Of a DNA stretch of 64,000 bases, positions 43,762 to 54,332 are shown piece after piece. The notes under the pieces are model-generated. The model was not told where the DNA came from and searched no databases. It saw only the letters and a list, made by a program, of their open reading frames with translations. Position 1 is the first letter of the stretch; every line of letters begins with the position of its first letter. The position numbers were made by a program, and so were the translations under genes. The DNA is from Planctomycetota bacterium (GTDB taxonomy: Bacteria; Planctomycetota; UBA1135; UBA2386): NCBI GenBank assembly GCA_965228735.1, contig OZ245838.1:6880001-6944000 (forward strand). The letters run 5' to 3'.

Positions 43762-45966
43762 CTACCGCAACGCCTGCAGCGCGAGCATCGCGGAAGCCGT
43801 CGTGTAGACCTCCATCCCGGGGTGGGCCCAGGCGTCGATCGCGGGCCAGTGCGCGGCGCCATCGGCCGTGATGCGGTTCGGCACGAGCGCTTCGTGCAGC
43901 GCGTTGCGCCAGCGTTCGAGCGTGACCGGTTCGATCTGCGGCGTTTCGGCCGCCGCGGCGAGCGCGATGGCCTCGGCACCGAAGTGCCAGTAGGCGAGGT
44001 CGATCGAGCCCTTGTCGGTGTGCCATTCGGGCGGCAACGCGGCCACGAGTTCGAGGCCACGCAAGTTGGTGTCCTTCTCGAGTGCGCTCTGGTCGTGAGC
44101 CGCCCGCGCCAGGAGCGTGAGGGCCGTCGGTTCCTCCGACAGCTCGCCCGGGAAGTCGGCCTTCTTGGCCACGAAGCGCGACATCGGACCGCCGCGCCTC
44201 ACGAAGCCGACCCGCCCGTTCTGCGGGTTGGTGAGCTCGTCGAGCAGCAGCATCGCGACCGTGATGCTGCGCTCTTTCGGCTCGATACCGCACTTGCTGG
44301 CGTCGCCGAGCGCGAGCAGCATCATCGACGTGATCTTGCTGTCGTTGTCGTTGTCGCGCACGCCGTAGCGCCACCCGGAGTACGGGTTCTGCGCGAAGTA
44401 GCAGTAGTCCGTCGCGAGTTCGATGCGGCTGCGGCGTTCCTCCGTCGGCCACTCCAGCTGCACCGCGGCGAGCGCGCGCAACGCGAACGCGTGGGCGTAG
44501 TGCGCGGCCATCGGGTCGTTCGGACCGATGCGGCCATTGGCCTGTTGCTGCGTCTCGAGGAACGCGGCTGCGCGCTGCACGGCTTTGGCGATCGGGAGCG
44601 GTTCCGTGCGCAGGCCGGGCAGCAGCGCGAGGATCGCCATCGCGGTAACGCAAGTCGAGTTGTGATCGCGGACGTTCTTGCCCGCCGGATCCGGGCCGAC
44701 GACCCAGCCGCCGTCTGCCTGTTGGTTCTGCAGCAGCCAGCGTGTGCCCTCCGTCAACGCCGTGCCGACCGCTTGCCGTTGCCGGGACGTCGGGTTCTTC
44801 ACCACGACCGGGGCGTCGGCTGCCGGTGCCGTGGCGGCCGCGCCGGGCCGCGGGGGGGCTTCGGATTGGGCGAGGGTGACGGTCCCGAGCAGGGTCAGGA
44901 GGAGCAGCGGTGCCGCTGCGGCGGTCAGGCGGGGCCGCGCGCGGAAGCGCGGGTCGAGAATGCGGAGCAGGCGGGTCTTCATGAACGTTCTCTCGGACAG
45001 GAGGTACGCGTGGGACAGCGCCGGCGTAGGGGTGTTGCAGGCGCGTTCGATCAGGGTGAGCAGGGAATCGGCGAGGGCGCCGCGGTCGACGTTGCTGCGC
45101 GCGAGCGCGGCCTCGTCGCAGGCGTATTCGCGCCAGCGCGCATGCAGCGCGGCGGCGAGCCAGAAGCCGGGGAAGAACCAGAAGGCGCAGCGCAGCCCCT
45201 CGATGAACGCGCCGATCGCGACGTCGTGGCGCGCCACGTGTGCGAGTTCGTGGCGCAACACGAAGTGCAGTTCGGTCCCCGCCATCGTTCTGGTGGCGTC
45301 GCTCGGCACCCACACGATCGGGCGGCGCACGCCGCTCGTGAGCGGCGACTCGAGCCCGTCGACGAAGCGTAGGTTCACGGGTCGTCGGATGCCGCTCTCG
45401 CGGACGAAGAGGCGGAACCGTGCCGCGAGCTCCGCGTCGGGTTCGCGGCTCCGGCGTTCGAGGCCGGCGATCGCCGCGCGCTGGCGGTAGATCAGGCGGA
45501 CCAACAGGCCGGACAGAGCGGCGAGCCAGATCGCCGCGAGGAGCGTGCGCCACGGCACTACGACCGGCTCGGTGCGCAGGCGTGCCGTGTCGTTCGGCTC
45601 CGGGGCACCGCCCGTCGGAGTGTCCGACTCGCCGAACGTCGGGTTGCTCGCGGTCGTGGACTCCGGCAGAGCGGGCGCCTGCGCGACGGACTCTGGTTCC
45701 GCTGCGACCCAGCTCGCGAACGGTAGCTGCAGCGTCGCCGGCGCGGGCAGCAGTCGGTCGATCGGCAGGACGAGCAGAACGAGCGGCAACAGCAGCAGGC
45801 AACTCGGCAGGTGGGCCGAACCGTGGCTGCGTCCGCGGCGGCTCGCTCGCAGGAGGCCGAGAACGAGCACGACGACGGTGAGCGCGAGCGCGCTGACGAC
45901 CATGCGCGCCGTGATCCAGTCCAGCCAGGCGTGCCCCAGCAGGTCCGCGTTCGAGGTGCCGATCAC
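43762..45966 (-). CDS. BlaR1-like M56 peptidase fused to a prenyltransferase/squalene-cyclase-repeat domain
   Basis: SPLTSG, HELAHVARHD, REYACD; C-terminal QQADGGW, QQANG and SGWRY repeats. Confidence 0.88.
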   Translation of the reverse strand: MIGTSNADLLGHAWLDWITARMVVSALALTVVVLVLGLLRASRRGRSHGSAHLPSCLLLLPLVLLVLPIDRLLPAPATLQLPFASWVAAEPESVAQAPALPESTTASNPTFGESDTPTGGAPEPNDTARLRTEPVVVPWRTLLAAIWLAALSGLLVRLIYRQRAAIAGLERRSREPDAELAARFRLFVRESGIRRPVNLRFVDGLESPLTSGVRRPIVWVPSDATRTMAGTELHFVLRHELAHVARHDVAIGAFIEGLRCAFWFFPGFWLAAALHARWREYACDEAALARSNVDRGALADSLLTLIERACNTPTPALSHAYLLSERTFMKTRLLRILDPRFRARPRLTAAAAPLLLLTLLGTVTLAQSEAPPRPGAAATAPAADAPVVVKNPTSRQRQAVGTALTEGTRWLLQNQQADGGWVVGPDPAGKNVRDHNSTCVTAMAILALLPGLRTEPLPIAKAVQRAAAFLETQQQANGRIGPNDPMAAHYAHAFALRALAAVQLEWPTEERRSRIELATDYCYFAQNPYSGWRYGVRDNDNDSKITSMMLLALGDASKCGIEPKERSITVAMLLLDELTNPQNGRVGFVRRGGPMSRFVAKKADFPGELSEEPTALTLLARAAHDQSALEKDTNLRGLELVAALPPEWHTDKGSIDLAYWHFGAEAIALAAAAETPQIEPVTLERWRNALHEALVPNRITADGAAHWPAIDAWAHPGMEVYTTASAMLALQALR

Positions 45967-46355
45967 GACTCGTCCTCCGAACGGCGGCGTTGGTCGATGA
46001 GGTCCCGCAGGGCGTCGAGGTCCTGTGGGCTGAGCTTGCTGCGCTTGACCATGTACTGCAGGAGCGGGCCGACGGTGCCCTCGACCGCGCGGTCCATGAG
46101 CTGGTCCGCGGACTCACGCAGCGCCTTGTGAATCGATCGGTTGGGGCGGTAGAGCAGCGAGTTGCCGACCGCGCGGGTCTTGAGCAGGCCCTTGTCGACG
46201 AGCCGCCGGAGCAGCGTCTTGATCGTGCTGTCGGACCAGCCGTGCCGGGCGCTCGCATCGGCGATCACGTCGCGCGCCGCGCAGCTTCGGTGCGCGAACA
46301 CGATCTTCAGGATCTTCCATTCCGCCTCGGTGGGCTGATTCGCTTCGGGTGCCAT
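45963..46355 (-). CDS. BlaI/MecI/CopY family repressor
   Basis: TEAEWKIL, WSDSTIKTLLRRLVDKG; 4-bp overlap with the M56 gene. Confidence 0.92.
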   Translation of the reverse strand: MAPEANQPTEAEWKILKIVFAHRSCAARDVIADASARHGWSDSTIKTLLRRLVDKGLLKTRAVGNSLLYRPNRSIHKALRESADQLMDRAVEGTVGPLLQYMVKRSKLSPQDLDALRDLIDQRRRSEDES

Positions 46356-49137: not shown

Positions 49138-49272
49138 CCGTCGGGGCTAGGTGCCGGCGGGCTCGCACACGGCGAACACCGCGGGCGTGCATCCTACGGT
49201 CGTACCGGTCATCGCGCCCGCCACTTTAGCGAGCAACTGCGACCGGCAGTGGCCGTGGCTATATTTCGCCAG

Positions 49273-50526
49273 ATGTTGCTCGCCTCCGTCGTTCTCGCCT
49301 GCCCGCCGCAAGGACCCGGTCCATCGCTGATGCAGAGCTTCCAGCGCGGCGACTTCGGTCGCCAGCTCCGGGCGATCGTGCCCGCCGCAGATGACCGCGC
49401 GTGGCAGGCCGTGCCGTGGGGCTCCGAGTTTCGCCGCGCTCTCGTCGCCGGAGCCGAGCAGGACAAACCCGTGTTGCTCTGGGCGATGAACGGGCACCCG
49501 CTCGGCCAGACTTGAAACAACGGCGTGCGGGCCAGGCGGTCGGTCTGGACGGATCCGCACGTGCAGGAGTTGACGGCGAGGTTCGTGACGGTCGCCGACG
49601 AAGTCGGGCGACTGCAGCGTGGCAAGGACGCGGAGAGCGCGATGTTTCGCTCGTTCTGCGAAGAAGGTCATTACGGCGGTCGCTCGCGTCCGACGGGCAC
49701 GCGGCAGGGGATCTACGCCGTTGCGCCGTCGGGCCGCTTCCTGGCGTCGATCAACACGACGCAGCCGCAGCGGATGGTGAAGATGCTCGAGACGGCGCTC
49801 GCGCGTTGGGCGGAGCTCGCTCCGACAGAGCGTGCGCTCCCGCCCGACATGCGGGAGCGGCTGCTCGGCGCCGAACGATTCGAAGACCGCTACCCCGACG
49901 ACGGGCTCGTTCTCGCCGAGTACTGCCGCGACCTCGAGCCGGCCGGTGCCGAGATCCCGCAGTGGCAGGCCGGCGCATGGAACGAGGATCAGGCCTGGTT
50001 CACGGCCGCCGAAGCCAGCCGCTTCGTGCCCGAGGAACTCGCGGTCGGCGCGAGCCGCGACGTCCCGGCGCGACTCGCGAGCAGGCTCGCGCGCCTGCAC
50101 CTCCTCGACGTCGTGCGTGGGCAGACGGCCGCGTTCCGCAAGAACCACGTCGAACGCGCCGAACTTCGCAGTGTGATCACCGGCGTCACCGACGGGCGCG
50201 TCGAGTTGCGCTTGACCGGCCACACCGCGACGCGGCACCGCGGCAGATGGCGCGTGCGCGACGGCCGTTCGTACACCGAGCCGGTCGAACACGAGCGCGG
50301 CGTGCGCACGGAGCTGCGCGGCCGCGCGACGTGGGATCCGGCGGAGCGGCGCTTCACCGCGTTCGAGCTGGTCGCGCTCGGGGAACGCTGGGGCGCGACG
50401 CAGTACAACGGCCGCCCGAACGACCTCGAGCCGACCCCGATCGGGTTCGCGTTCGTGCTCGCGCCGCCAGACCACCCACGCGTCGCTCCGGCGTTCTATT
50501 GGCACTACACGCTGCGCAGCGAATAG
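49273..50526 (+). CDS. Probable selenoprotein, SelN-like thioredoxin fold (UGA at 49513-49515 read as Sec)
   Basis: ORFs 49249-49515 and 49525-50526 are in the same frame, separated by one TGA in KPVLLWAMNGHPLGQT-U-NNG; SECIS-like hairpin follows. Alternative start 49249. Confidence 0.8.
49523..49562 (+). promoter_or_regulatory. Candidate bacterial SECIS element
   Basis: Lower stem GCGUGCGG/CCGCACGU, upper stem CCAGGC/GUCUGG, apical loop GGUCG starting 22 nt after the UGA. Confidence 0.7.
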
Positions 50527-50562: not shown

Positions 50563-53500
50563 TCAGTCGTCGCCGCCGGTCAGTCCGGCGAGCATCTGTT
50601 GGGCGGCGTTCAGCATGCCGTGGCCGGGATGGGTGCGGCCCATGCGTTCGACCAGGCTCTCCAACAGTTCGATCGCGGCCTTCTTGTTCTCGCCGTCTGG
50701 GGTCATCGCGAGCGCGCGCGCGAGCCAGAACTCCGCATGGTAGGTCTGGAGGTTCTCCGGGCCGAGCGCGGTGTGGTTGAGCGTCGCGCCGCCCCGCAGG
50801 TGGGGGATCGCGTCGTCCGGGCGCTGCAGTCGCACGAACGTGATCCCGAGGCCGATGCGGGGCCGCGCCTGGGTCGGATGGTCCGCCGGCAGCGTGCGAC
50901 CGAACATCGCGATCGACTCCTCGAACAACGGGATCGCCTCGTCGTAGCGCCGCTGGCGTGAGATCGCGGTCGCGAGGCTCAACAGGCTGCCGGCGGTCTG
51001 GGAGTGTTCGCCGAGCTTCGCGCGCCTGGCGTCGAGCACCGCGCGAAACTCGTTCTCGGCGGCGGCGTGATTGCCGCGATCGAGTTCGCCGACGGCGACC
51101 GAGTTGCGCGCCGTCAAGACCACCGGGTGCAGCGCGTCGTAGACCGCGCTGCGGATCGCGAGCGACTCGCGATACATCGCGACGGCCTCGTCGATCCTGC
51201 CGGTCCGCCTGAGCAGGTTGGCGAAGTTGGACAGCGTCGTCGCGAGCTCGGGGTGGGCGGCGGGCAGAGCCGCGCGCTGAATCGCGAGGGCGTCGCGGAA
51301 CAGCGTTTCGGCTTCTTCGAGCTCGTCGAGCCGTCCGAGGCACGCGGCGAGCTGGCCCATCGTCAGTGCCGGATACGGGTGGTCGTCGTCGAACCGTGCG
51401 CGGTCGTGCGCGAGGATCTCGCGCAACAGCTCGATCGCGCGGTCGTCGTTGCCGTAGTCGATCTCGAGCATCGCGAGTTCGAACAGCATCGTGTCGACGT
51501 CCGGGTGATCGGGGCCGGTGAACTCGCGCGTCAGCTCGAGGGTCCGTTCGAACGCCGTGCGAGCCGACTCGAGATCCTCGAGCTCCTTGTAGGCCCGGCC
51601 GCGCTCCGTGTGCAGCATCAGGAACCGCGGGTCGTCGACCGCCGAGGCGTCCGGGGCGTCGCCGACGGCTTCTCGCTGGGTCGCTTCGAGCAACTCCGCG
51701 GCCTGCTCGGGACGGCCCCGTTCGCGCAGCACCTGCGCGCGCGTGACCGCGACGCCGAACGTCCGGTCCGTGACGTCGTTCTCCGCGGCGAGCCGCGCGG
51801 CCCGGTCGAGGAGCTGCTCGGCTTCGTCATAGCGGCCGGGCTCACGCAGCCAGGAGGCGAGCGTCGTGAGCCGGAGAACGCGCTCGAGCACCGGCGCCGG
51901 ACCGCCGCGTGCCGGAGGTTCGATCGACGCGCGGATGAGCCGTTCGCCGGCCGCGTCGTCGCCGTCGTGGAACGCCTGCACGCCGGCCCAGTACTGGGCG
52001 CGACGATGGGCCGAACCGTCGCCGGCATGCTCGCGCAGCACGCGTTCGGCTTCGGCCATGAGCGGGCGCGACGCGTCGTAGAGTCCGAGTCCGATGTAGG
52101 CCCGCGCCATCGTCATCTGCAGCTGCGCGCGCTGTGCGGGCGCCACGGTGAGGTCACGATCGATGCGGCGCGCGCCGCGGTCGAGCAGCTGGCGCGCACG
52201 CAGAGTCTCGGCGCGTTCGGGATCGGGCGACGCCATGTCGAACAGGTCGACGAGGAAGCCCGTCATCTCGTCCGCCAGGCGACGTTGCGTGATCGCGTTG
52301 TCTCGCTCCTGCGCGATCCGCTGGTTCTGTAGGAACGTCGTGATCGCGAACGCGACGACGAGGCCGAGCACGACGACCGCCGCGCCGAGCGCGATGCGAT
52401 GGCGCGCGACGAACTTCCGCGCGCGATAGCCGATGGTGTCCCCCTGGGCCGTGACCGGCAGCCCGTCGAGATAGTTGCCGAGGTCGGCGGCGAGCGCCGC
52501 GGCCGACTCGTACCGCCGTTCGGGCTCCTTGCGCATCGCGCACGCGACGATCGTGTCGAGGTCGCCGCGCAGCAGACGCGTCGAGTGCGGCGCGCTCGGG
52601 CCGCGCGTGTTCGCGATGGCGCTCGGGGGTGGGGGCGTGCGCTCGCACACGACTTCGATGAGCTGGGTCAGCGACCGGTTCTCGAGCGGCTGCGCGCGCT
52701 CTCCGGACAGCAGTTCGTAGAGCAGAGCGCCGAGCGCGTAGACGTCGGTCGCCGTCGTGATCGGTTCGCCGCGCACTTGTTCGGGGCTGCTGTACTCCGG
52801 CGTGAGCAGCATGTTGCCGGTGCGGGTGAGGGCGAGCGAGGCCTCGCCGTGCTCCTCCGGCAGCAGCAGCTTGGCGATGCCGAAGTCGAGCAACTTCGGT
52901 TCGCCGTCCGTCGACACGAGGATGTTGCTCGGCTTGAGATCGCGGTGCACGACGAGCGCGCGGTGCGCGTGCGCGACGCCGCGGCAGACCTTGATGAACA
53001 GGCGCAGCCGGTCGTGCAGCGAGAGCCGAGCTTCGCGGCAGAACGTGAGCAGGTCGGGCCCGTCGACGTACTCCATGACGACGTAGGGCTGACCGGTGTC
53101 CGTCGTGCCGCCGTCGAACAGTGCCGCGATGTTGGGATGCTGGAGGCCGGCGAGGATGCGGCGCTCGGTGCGGAAGCGGCGCTGCATCTCGCTGTCGTCG
53201 AGCGGCGCGCGCAGCAGCTTGATCGCGACGCGGTTCTTGAAGTCGCTGTCCTGCCGCTCGCAAAGGTAGACGACACCCATGCCGCCGCGGCCGAGCTCGC
53301 GCGTGACGCGGTAGCTGCCGATCTGCTCGGGCGGCGGCCCGGCGGCCTCGTTCTCGGCGTCCTGCATCGCGCCCGCGACCTCGGCCTCGCCGAACGCCTG
53401 CGCCGGCGAACCGAGCTCTTCGGGGTCGTCGTTGTGCTGCGCGAACAGCCGCCGCAGCTCCGTCGCGAGCGTCGGCGTCTCGGCCGCCAACCGCTCCAGC

Positions 53501-53619
53501 GCGGCGGCGCGGGCCGTTTCGGAGAGCGCCCGCAGCGCCTCGAACTCCGTCGCGATGCGACCGAAGTCGAGTTCCCCGCTATGCTTCGTGGGGCGTCCGG
53601 GCGTGGCGTCGTCGTTCAT
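50563..53619 (-). CDS. Hanks-type Ser/Thr kinase with TM and TPR repeats (ECF-associated)
   Basis: LGRGGMGVVY, VAIK, HRDLKPSN, LLDFGIAK, TPEYSSPEQ. Confidence 0.95.
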   Translation of the reverse strand: MNDDATPGRPTKHSGELDFGRIATEFEALRALSETARAAALERLAAETPTLATELRRLFAQHNDDPEELGSPAQAFGEAEVAGAMQDAENEAAGPPPEQIGSYRVTRELGRGGMGVVYLCERQDSDFKNRVAIKLLRAPLDDSEMQRRFRTERRILAGLQHPNIAALFDGGTTDTGQPYVVMEYVDGPDLLTFCREARLSLHDRLRLFIKVCRGVAHAHRALVVHRDLKPSNILVSTDGEPKLLDFGIAKLLLPEEHGEASLALTRTGNMLLTPEYSSPEQVRGEPITTATDVYALGALLYELLSGERAQPLENRSLTQLIEVVCERTPPPPSAIANTRGPSAPHSTRLLRGDLDTIVACAMRKEPERRYESAAALAADLGNYLDGLPVTAQGDTIGYRARKFVARHRIALGAAVVVLGLVVAFAITTFLQNQRIAQERDNAITQRRLADEMTGFLVDLFDMASPDPERAETLRARQLLDRGARRIDRDLTVAPAQRAQLQMTMARAYIGLGLYDASRPLMAEAERVLREHAGDGSAHRRAQYWAGVQAFHDGDDAAGERLIRASIEPPARGGPAPVLERVLRLTTLASWLREPGRYDEAEQLLDRAARLAAENDVTDRTFGVAVTRAQVLRERGRPEQAAELLEATQREAVGDAPDASAVDDPRFLMLHTERGRAYKELEDLESARTAFERTLELTREFTGPDHPDVDTMLFELAMLEIDYGNDDRAIELLREILAHDRARFDDDHPYPALTMGQLAACLGRLDELEEAETLFRDALAIQRAALPAAHPELATTLSNFANLLRRTGRIDEAVAMYRESLAIRSAVYDALHPVVLTARNSVAVGELDRGNHAAAENEFRAVLDARRAKLGEHSQTAGSLLSLATAISRQRRYDEAIPLFEESIAMFGRTLPADHPTQARPRIGLGITFVRLQRPDDAIPHLRGGATLNHTALGPENLQTYHAEFWLARALAMTPDGENKKAAIELLESLVERMGRTHPGHGMLNAAQQMLAGLTGGDD

Positions 53620-54190
53620 GTCAAGCGATCGCGAGTCGTTCACCGAGATGCTGCAGCGCCACCGCGGCGGCGAGGACGTCGCCCTCGGCGCGTTCCTGCC
53701 CGCGGTCTACGACGAACTGCGCGGCCTCGCCCGGCAGCAGCTGCAGCGCGAGGCCAAGGCGGCGCTCGAGCCGACTGCGCTCGTGCACGAAGTCTACCTC
53801 CGGCTCGTGGATCAGCGGCTCGCAGGGGTGGCGGATCGAACGCATTTTCGGCGGCTCTGTGCGCGGGTCATGCGGCAGGTCCTCGTGGACCAGGCCCGCA
53901 AACGCGATGCGCAGAAACGCGGTGGCGACCGCGAAGAAACCCTCAAAACCTGGCTCGAACCCGCGGCCCCCGATGCCGCGGGCGGCGGCCTGCCCGTGCT
54001 CGCGCTCGACGAGGCCCTCGAACGCCTCACCGCGCTCGATGAACGCAAGGCCCAGGTCGTCGAGCTGCGCTGCTTCGGCGGCCTGTCGATGGCCGAGGTC
54101 GCGGCCGCGCTCGAGGTGTCGCTGCGCACGATCGAGGCGGATTGGTACTTCGCCCGCGCCTGGCTCAAGGCCGAGCTCGCGCCGGAGTAG
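53618..54190 (+). CDS. ECF sigma factor, TIGR02999-type (kinase-associated)
   Basis: VYDELRGLA, LEPTALVHEVYLRL, MRQVLVDQAR..KRGG, VELRCFGGL, DWYFARAWL. Confidence 0.93.
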   Translation: MSSDRESFTEMLQRHRGGEDVALGAFLPAVYDELRGLARQQLQREAKAALEPTALVHEVYLRLVDQRLAGVADRTHFRRLCARVMRQVLVDQARKRDAQKRGGDREETLKTWLEPAAPDAAGGGLPVLALDEALERLTALDERKAQVVELRCFGGLSMAEVAAALEVSLRTIEADWYFARAWLKAELAPE

Positions 54191-54256: not shown

Positions 54257-54332
54257 TACCCCGTGGTGTAATTGGTAGCACATCTGGTTTTGGTCCAGTC
54301 GGTTCCTGGTTCGAGTCCAGGCGGGGTAACCA
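54257..54332 (+). tRNA. tRNA-Gln (anticodon TTG)
   Basis: Acceptor stem TACCCCG/CGGGGTA, D arm GTGT/GCAC, anticodon loop TTTTGGT, T arm CCTGG-TTCGAGT-CCAGG, encoded CCA. Confidence 0.97.
54288..54332 (+). repeat. attL core (3' part of tRNA-Gln)
   Basis: TTTTGGTCCAGTCGGTTCCTGGTTCGAGTCCAGGCGGGGTAACCA, identical to 62568-62612. Confidence 0.95.

Follow-up and report, generated by a model that had tools for sequence, protein, structure and literature searches.

A gene of 417 codons in the window, i.e. the whole 64,000-nucleotide stretch of planctomycete DNA that was analysed, contains a UGA that is almost certainly decoded as selenocysteine (Sec). On balance, we favour reading it as one gene with Sec for a likely exported thiol-disulfide oxidoreductase, in which the thioredoxin and beta domains of SELENON (SEPN1 of animals and algae) likely stand in reversed order. 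The gene is a member of a real and widespread bacterial selenoprotein family that is apparently uncatalogued. The features referred to below are:

49260..49265, + strand: hexamer TATATT, 7 nt upstream of the ATG and possibly the -10 box of a leaderless transcript
49273..50526, + strand: single gene of 417 codons, ATG to TAG, with UGA at codon 81 (translation)
49273..49308, + strand: short hydrophobic N-terminus, likely a signal peptide (relatives' N-termini, low pLDDT)
49354..49824, + strand: thioredoxin-fold domain, about residues 28-184, DsbD-gamma/DsbH/AGR-like
49513..49515, + strand: in-frame TGA, likely Sec81, at the first-Cys position of CxxC, directly before the active-site helix
49523..49562, + strand: bacterial SECIS-like hairpin, apical loop GGUCG at 49538-49542 (fold and model script)
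49657..49659, + strand: Cys129, candidate substitute resolving thiol, in all 8 Q-T-U members
49906..50460, + strand: beta-rich domain, about residues 212-396, likely homologous to the pre-thioredoxin domain of SELENON

Structure of the gene

Translation of the frame from 49273 to 50526 gave 417 residues with TGA 49513-15 (residue 81) as the sole internal stop, bearing out the original prediction that two ORFs share one frame and are separated only by TGA-AAC-AAC-GGC. The whole stretch including the TGA was letter-for-letter identical in contigs from three further sequencing runs, and a fourth run's piece covering the UGA codon was identical as well. These near-identical contigs, which may come from the same source DNA, argue solely against an assembly slip. 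In protein collections, the family occurs almost only as its C-terminal half, named hypothetical; databases annotate the halves apart, just as it had been foreseen that standard pipelines would split the gene into hypothetical proteins.

The gene's own ATG has no SD sequence, which together with the TATATT hexamer 7 nt before it suggests a leaderless transcript. The pattern TAnnnT was found 5-8 nt upstream of an in-frame ATG in 30 of 94 relatives compared with 1 of 410 internal ATGs, a contrast that is inflated as several ATGs per gene were permitted. No full sigma-70 site was found upstream of the gene. The second ORF's GTG indeed lacks an SD, as had been pointed out, but this is weak evidence since the first ATG lacks one too. 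Judged by its sequence, the N-terminus is likely a signal peptide: in the closest relatives this segment ends in A-P-Q or A-Q, and residues 1-20 of the AF2 model have low pLDDT. From this predicted signal peptide, the proposed export of the protein is probable. A lipoprotein was also considered and rejected, as Cys10 is not conserved among relatives and a lipobox is unlikely.

UGA codon and selenocysteine machinery

The sequence around the UGA reads G74-H-P-L-G-Q-T-U81-N-N-G84-x-x-x-R88. Its codon was compared across 114 distinct loci whose alignments cover residues 70-90; three non-spanning alignments were dropped and the copy of one genome (G148), which has no alignable Sec region, was omitted. 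The set combines the 30 best matches of a search of 401 genomes of the phylum, 20 chosen regions (picked so that stop-less matches were included), paralogues, and the 80 best matches of a genome-collection scan. In this set, which leans to close relatives, the residue-81 column holds TGA at 107 loci, TGT at two, Ser codons at three, and Asp and Val codons at one each; TAA, TAG or TGG occurred at none of the 114. Both flanks are conserved too, so that the check originally proposed (Cys or UGA at this column, with conservation on either side) came out in favour. On both sides of the UGA, codon positions 1-2 are more conserved than position 3 across the 107 genes, i.e. conservation is of the coding type. 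The same genes terminate in TAG (47), TGA (42), TAA (14) or at a contig end (4), and just 45 of them retain the GTG start of the second ORF.

Full-length database proteins include two Cys forms (P0123 and P0250), while others carry Trp (P0043), Ala, Ser or Arg at the Sec column. Such non-Cys residues in some proteins and loci imply that some members work without a redox residue. Some proteins join the domain pair to a Ser/Thr kinase-Kelch protein (with Asp at the Sec column), to a SecDF-like domain or to a beta-propeller. Examples of fusion or non-Sec forms are P0129, P0201, P0127, L042, L047 and L053, and some genomes hold a Sec and a non-Sec paralogue side by side.

All four components sought for Sec insertion are present in the window genome: selA, selB, selD and tRNA-Sec (selC). 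The same genome carries three further paralogues, each with TGA at the same column in the context G-C-T-U. Within the phylum, 127 of 401 genomes have the family protein, and a strong selA match was found in 123 of these 127 carriers versus 290 of the 401 genomes overall (14 weak matches set aside; kin are not independent). Of the four carriers without strong selA, two have selB above the cut-off; the remaining two lack both genes and show a Ser codon. The genome-collection scan gave at least 582 related stretches, the best 80 of which are mostly from Planctomycetota, with a few from Armatimonadota, one from Verrucomicrobiota and some other or unassigned records. The original prediction had named beforehand what could refute it (a genome without selABCD; Trp, Arg, TAA or TAG at the column; halves occurring as independent genes), and on none of these points was it refuted.

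SECIS-like hairpin

The predicted hairpin was confirmed to begin 7 nt after the UGA, with the GGUCG loop 22 nt downstream and the second ORF's GTG (49525) inside it. Its geometry also agrees with that of a bacterial SECIS: it passes our own script version, used in place of bSECISearch, of the model in PMC13188914 (section 5), which asks for a hairpin at a distance of 16-37 nt downstream of the UGA and for a loop that starts with G. By itself, the window hairpin is no more stable than shuffled sequences (z = -0.57; 53 of 200 fold as well), and support for it therefore comes from conservation in the family. The SECIS model is passed by 93 of the 107 family genes, versus 53-70 after synonymous recoding and 26-43 at other gene positions. 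On average 4.47 of 6 stem pairs are formed, against 2.92 ± 0.08 in controls, and rare AGA/AGG Arg codons occur in the stem of 49 of 107 genes versus 172 of 3426 Arg codons elsewhere. As judged from these sequence comparisons, the hairpin is under selection in the family through synonymous choices. A search of Rfam gave nothing near the gathering score.

Thioredoxin domain and active site

The thioredoxin fold of the original prediction is supported by the AF2 model and by hhalign, and the UGA break falls inside this fold in the model. Foldseek gave no match at E<=0.001; the nearest folds in a wide search include atypical AGR3 and UAS domains. As hits to the thioredoxin domain took up both wide fold searches, the beta domain was barely compared with solved folds.

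The family motif is C-T-U. Among UGA members, C-x-U is kept in 91 of 107 and C(-2) is missing in 16, and the Q-T-U of the window gene belongs to a clade of eight. Absence of a Cys beside the Sec had been claimed, which is true of the window gene (GQT-U) but not of the family. The suggested mono-selenol site likewise survives as a trait of one clade, with the reservation that all its members carry Cys129, a candidate resolving thiol. The FC[ED]xG motif containing Cys129 is also present in 15 of the 91 C-x-U members. Most members retain C-x-U, and Cys129 appears in the clade without C(-2), which suggests that a resolving thiol is required. The window protein has no second CxxC Cys (U-x-x-G), and T-R-Q-G stands where SELENON has its F-P-V loop, presumably the cis-Pro position of the thioredoxin fold. 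Lack of Pro at this position is unusual for a disulfide oxidoreductase.

Relation to SELENON

SELENON-type sequences were gathered from metagenome contigs by a short active-site pattern and identified by features of that family: the SCUG motif, a hydrophobic stretch at the N-terminus and, in 6 of 14 sequences, EF-hand hits. The SCUG motif is that described for SELENON in PMC12839072. The active site of the present family, C-T-U-N-N-G or Q-T-U-N-N-G, lacks it, and no EF-hand was hit in 47 members. For a Cys member, rank 2 in the Atlas was a 'Selenoprotein N' cluster (0.91, 194 shared features). The thioredoxin domains of the family and of SELENON align with Sec on Sec (hhalign P 88.9, E 2.4e-6; none of 60 shuffles as good), and in fold searches a SELENON-order protein and the family share their top structural neighbours. 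In the register of the predicted structures, P66/G74/U81/G84/R88 correspond to P236/G244/U252/G255/R259 of a SELENON-type protein. The parallel originally drawn through 'LLW' proved to be three residues out of this register, so that W70 of the family is not matched to the W of SELENON.

A thioredoxin-domain tree was built from 62 domains, including 19 family rows chosen for spread and omitting partial rows. In this midpoint-rooted tree of a short alignment, from which events cannot be ordered, eukaryotic and bacterial SELENON-order rows form a 95/97 branch with all 19 family rows outside it. The family is more distant from SELENON than are other thioredoxin selenoproteins of planctomycetes. 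A reverse HMM search (E<=10) gave 124 rows, including 6 reversed controls, and many planctomycete thioredoxin selenoproteins with other tails match both the family and the SELENON profile. The protein is thus SelN-like in having a real link to SELENON through the thioredoxin domain, but it is not a SELENON orthologue, given that it has no SCUG motif, EF-hand or F-P-V loop, shows the reversed domain order and falls outside the SELENON clade.

SELENON-order genes with UGA were found in about 11 of the 401 genomes. Full Planctomycetota genes of this order, with an S/A-C-U motif and UGA, are L218-L226 (in G004, G292, G337, G018, G350, G033, G042, G372 and G025); the two that were scanned gave no NCBIfam match. 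In the tree, eukaryotic SELENON-type rows nest among them. At least three more groups of UGA-bearing SELENON-like thioredoxin proteins with other C-terminal parts (L229-L247) have motifs such as LDGGL-U-SAGHSLR, LDDEFC-U-xNAR and LDKEGC-U-AAG, and again the three scanned had no NCBIfam match.

The hairpin after the UGA in animal-type SELENON transcripts is the known SRE. In L184, L194 and L206 it is placed like the SECIS of bacterial SELENON-order genes (L219, L222, L224 and L225 were compared), and some have a loop of the GGUC type near +24 to +27. The animal SRE may be a relic of a bacterial SECIS, or shared Gly-Pro codons could explain the loop instead.

Beta domain and domain order

The family has the thioredoxin domain first and the beta domain second, the reverse of SELENON. 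Against the beta domains of 13 bacterial SELENON-order proteins, the family beta domain gave E 5.5e-5 by hhalign over 129 columns (0 of 80 shuffles as good; reversed control E 0.32), and against a profile of 143 sequences E 1.4e-3 in the same register (0 of 60 shuffles). Three unrelated tail profiles gave E 0.16-0.42. The match is modest, with hhalign probabilities of 66% and 18% against the bacterial profiles. With the eukaryotic SELENON-type profile by itself it fell short of significance (E 0.29-0.31), as it did with an initial profile of mostly eukaryotic sequences (E 0.12, equalled by 2 of 60 shuffles). Bacterial SELENON-order beta domains match eukaryotic ones at P 99.9, and the link of the family beta domain to SELENON is thus made by transitivity through the bacterial proteins.

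The AF2 model of a SELENON-order protein (pLDDT 84.3) places the beta domain first. Domain by domain, its helices and strands follow one another as in the family model, while the domains themselves stand in opposite order; for this comparison, 19 structural segments were paired by hand. We consider it quite probable that both domains are homologous to those of SELENON, i.e. that the family represents a circular permutation of the SELENON core; the probable kinship of the second domain had been overlooked in the original prediction. L240, which combines a SELENON-like motif with a thioredoxin-first order, was considered as an intermediate and rejected, its tail giving E 0.053 against the family beta profile and 0.57 against SELENON.

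A broader picture is tentative, and we see it as somewhat short of an even chance: the SELENON thioredoxin domain would underlie a large selenoprotein superfamily of Planctomycetota, so far uncatalogued, whose two-domain core occurs in either order, the permuted one being commoner here (127 versus about 11 of 401 genomes). Eukaryotic SELENON would nest among bacterial SELENON-order proteins, and the Q-T-U clade would be a natural substrate-trapping or rewired-resolving form.

Proposed mechanism and alternative explanations

By analogy with SELENON, the likely activity is reductase-type chemistry on protein thiols. SelB-tRNA(Sec) would bind the hairpin 22 nt after the UGA and insert Sec81, and the signal peptide would direct export. 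From the attacking position, the Sec81 selenolate could then attack a disulfide or an oxidised Cys in an envelope client that docks against the beta domain and so spans both domains. Release of the product would fall to Cys79 (C-T-U) in most members, as it does to the Cys beside Sec in SELENON. According to PMC7474598, Sec is the attacking residue of SELENON and a mutant with the adjacent Cys changed to Ser traps clients. The Q-T-U clade lacks Cys79, so release there might depend on Cys129 or an outside thiol, or the mixed selenenyl-sulfide may be longer-lived, resembling a natural trapping form.

It is very improbable that the UGA is a true stop, or encodes Trp or Gly by a changed code, which would leave two coupled genes, a pseudogene or an ordinary protein. 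Although the window hairpin alone is not significant, P0043 has Trp at the column and databases annotate the halves apart, the internal stop is TGA in 107 of 107 genes, TGA terminates 42 of these same genes, the second ORF has no conserved start, the break lies inside the thioredoxin fold, and presence of the family tracks the Sec machinery. A genuine selenoprotein might also resemble SELENON through a shared thioredoxin fold only, with an unrelated beta domain and no permutation. This is unlikely in our view: the beta match extends over 129-134 columns in one register with two profiles and scores better than any of 140 shuffles and than the reversed control, unrelated tails stay at background level, and both predicted models have the same order of elements in this domain. 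Points in favour of an unrelated beta domain are the non-significant hhalign results against eukaryotic SELENON-type profiles (E 0.12-0.31), probabilities of just 18-66% against the bacterial SELENON-order beta profiles, the position of the family outside the SELENON clade, and the many planctomycete thioredoxin selenoproteins with other tails that match both profiles.

The main functional alternative, raised by the missing cis-position Pro and the non-redox members, retains the permuted relationship to SELENON but has Sec81 scavenge peroxides or electrophiles, or else act as a sensor of redox state or metals through which binding by the beta domain is switched. Consistent with this are the lack of both a second CxxC Cys and the cis-position Pro, the loss of C(-2) in 16 of 107 UGA members, the persistence of non-redox members (also in Sec-less genomes), the fusions to kinase/Kelch, beta-propeller and SecDF-like domains, and nearest folds that include atypical AGR3 and UAS. 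We nevertheless regard a scavenger or sensor as distinctly unlikely: C-x-U is kept in 91 of 107 members and Cys129 is present where C(-2) is lost, suggesting a resolving thiol, and SELENON itself acts on protein thiols (PMC7474598).

Comparison with known families

SELENON and the bacterial SELENON-order proteins (such as L218-L226, L175 and L163) share with the family a homologous thioredoxin domain with Sec at the same position in a common G...U-x-x-[GA]-x-x-x-R frame, a partner Cys upstream rather than downstream of Sec, probably the same beta domain, and an extracytoplasmic location (predicted here). The family differs in that the thioredoxin domain comes first, C-T-U or Q-T-U replaces S-C-U-G, the loop is one residue shorter with T-R-Q-G in place of F-P-V, the EF-hand of animal forms is absent, and its tree branch is separate. 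VPGUxxT thioredoxin-like (seleno)proteins (NCBIfam NF041382/NF041383) likewise combine a Thioredoxin-7-like fold with Sec at the first CxxC position, but have another motif, and only 1 of 47 family members reaches E 0.02-0.03; a separate VPG-U gene (VPG-U-KTC) is present elsewhere in the window genome. In contrast to folds of the DsbD-gamma/DsbH/AGR2-3/3f9u type (Pfam Thioredoxin_7, Thioredox_DsbH), the family has neither CxxC nor the cis-position Pro, and adds Sec and a beta domain of about 200 residues. The CxU or GNPxU selenoproteins Sec.1, TsoX (NF045809) and Trx7/PDZ (NF041199), listed in PMC13188914 Table 1, also are thioredoxin-like with C-x-U or G-x-P near Sec, but differ in architecture; at E<=0.1, neither their NCBIfam models nor PF13192 picked up any family member.

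No Pfam or NCBIfam model reached its cut-off for the window protein, and a sequence search of the PDB gave nothing significant. The 47 aligned members had weak matches only (best E 0.003 for Pfam and 0.013 for NCBIfam), and TsoX, Trx7/PDZ, SaoT, HUIPC and other NCBIfam selenoprotein models are absent from the 8 weak families matched at E<=0.1. No row of the 2026 prokaryotic selenoprotein catalogue (PMC13188914 Table 1, 119 families) fits the family, and that paper nowhere mentions Planctomycetes or SelN. The accessible share of the published literature yielded no paper on the family, a bacterial SELENON or a permuted form. Table S9 of PMC4807772 lists one 'hypothetical' and two 'thioredoxin-like' planctomycete candidates by IMG numbers only, and one of these could belong to this family. 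The catalogue and NCBIfam thus appear to miss a family present in about a third of the sampled genomes of the phylum, often in several copies per genome, that is annotated as two hypothetical proteins. A doctoral thesis reportedly treats a SELENON orthologue of Poribacteria.

SELENON causes human myopathy. It matched no solved structure by sequence, and Pfam has no family for its beta domain. If the bacterial family is indeed permuted, its natural Cys, Ser and Cys-less variants would delimit the smallest SELENON core and reveal the surfaces that both domains have to retain; they would also supply soluble proteins for structural work and for trapping experiments. Under the superfamily reading, soluble Cys members would be expressible models for the unsolved SELENON core.

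Genomic context

Clustering of the neighbourhoods of the 114 loci gave no operon clue and no conserved neighbour pointing to a client; neighbours were generic, among them ABC ATPases (10 loci), kinases (6) and sulfatases (6). In the window genome (G+C 69%), selA is directly followed by selD at G000:C1:121595-123694, and selD itself has an in-frame TGA. Beyond the four family copies, contig G000:C1 has another five frames for thioredoxin folds, each interrupted by an in-frame TGA that a hairpin follows, at 2546073(+), 5497226(+), 6694396(-), 3235789(+) and 4263577(-); their motifs are LDDEFC-U, IDGFA-U, VPG-U, VPGMW-U and GFN-U-GSC. At least nine UGA-bearing thioredoxin-fold candidate selenoprotein genes in one genome suggest heavy use of selenium in the planctomycete cell envelope.

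Within the window, the gene is followed at 50563-54190 by an ECF sigma factor and a Ser/Thr kinase-TPR gene, and the kinase neighbour recurs in this orientation only in the closest relative (L062). On the minus strand, 43762-46355 holds a BlaI/BlaR1 (peptidase M56) pair fused to a prenyltransferase-like domain. A tRNA-Gln at 54257-54332 precedes a gene of the phage-integrase family and phage-like ORFs (54426 onward), which are likely part of an integrated element.
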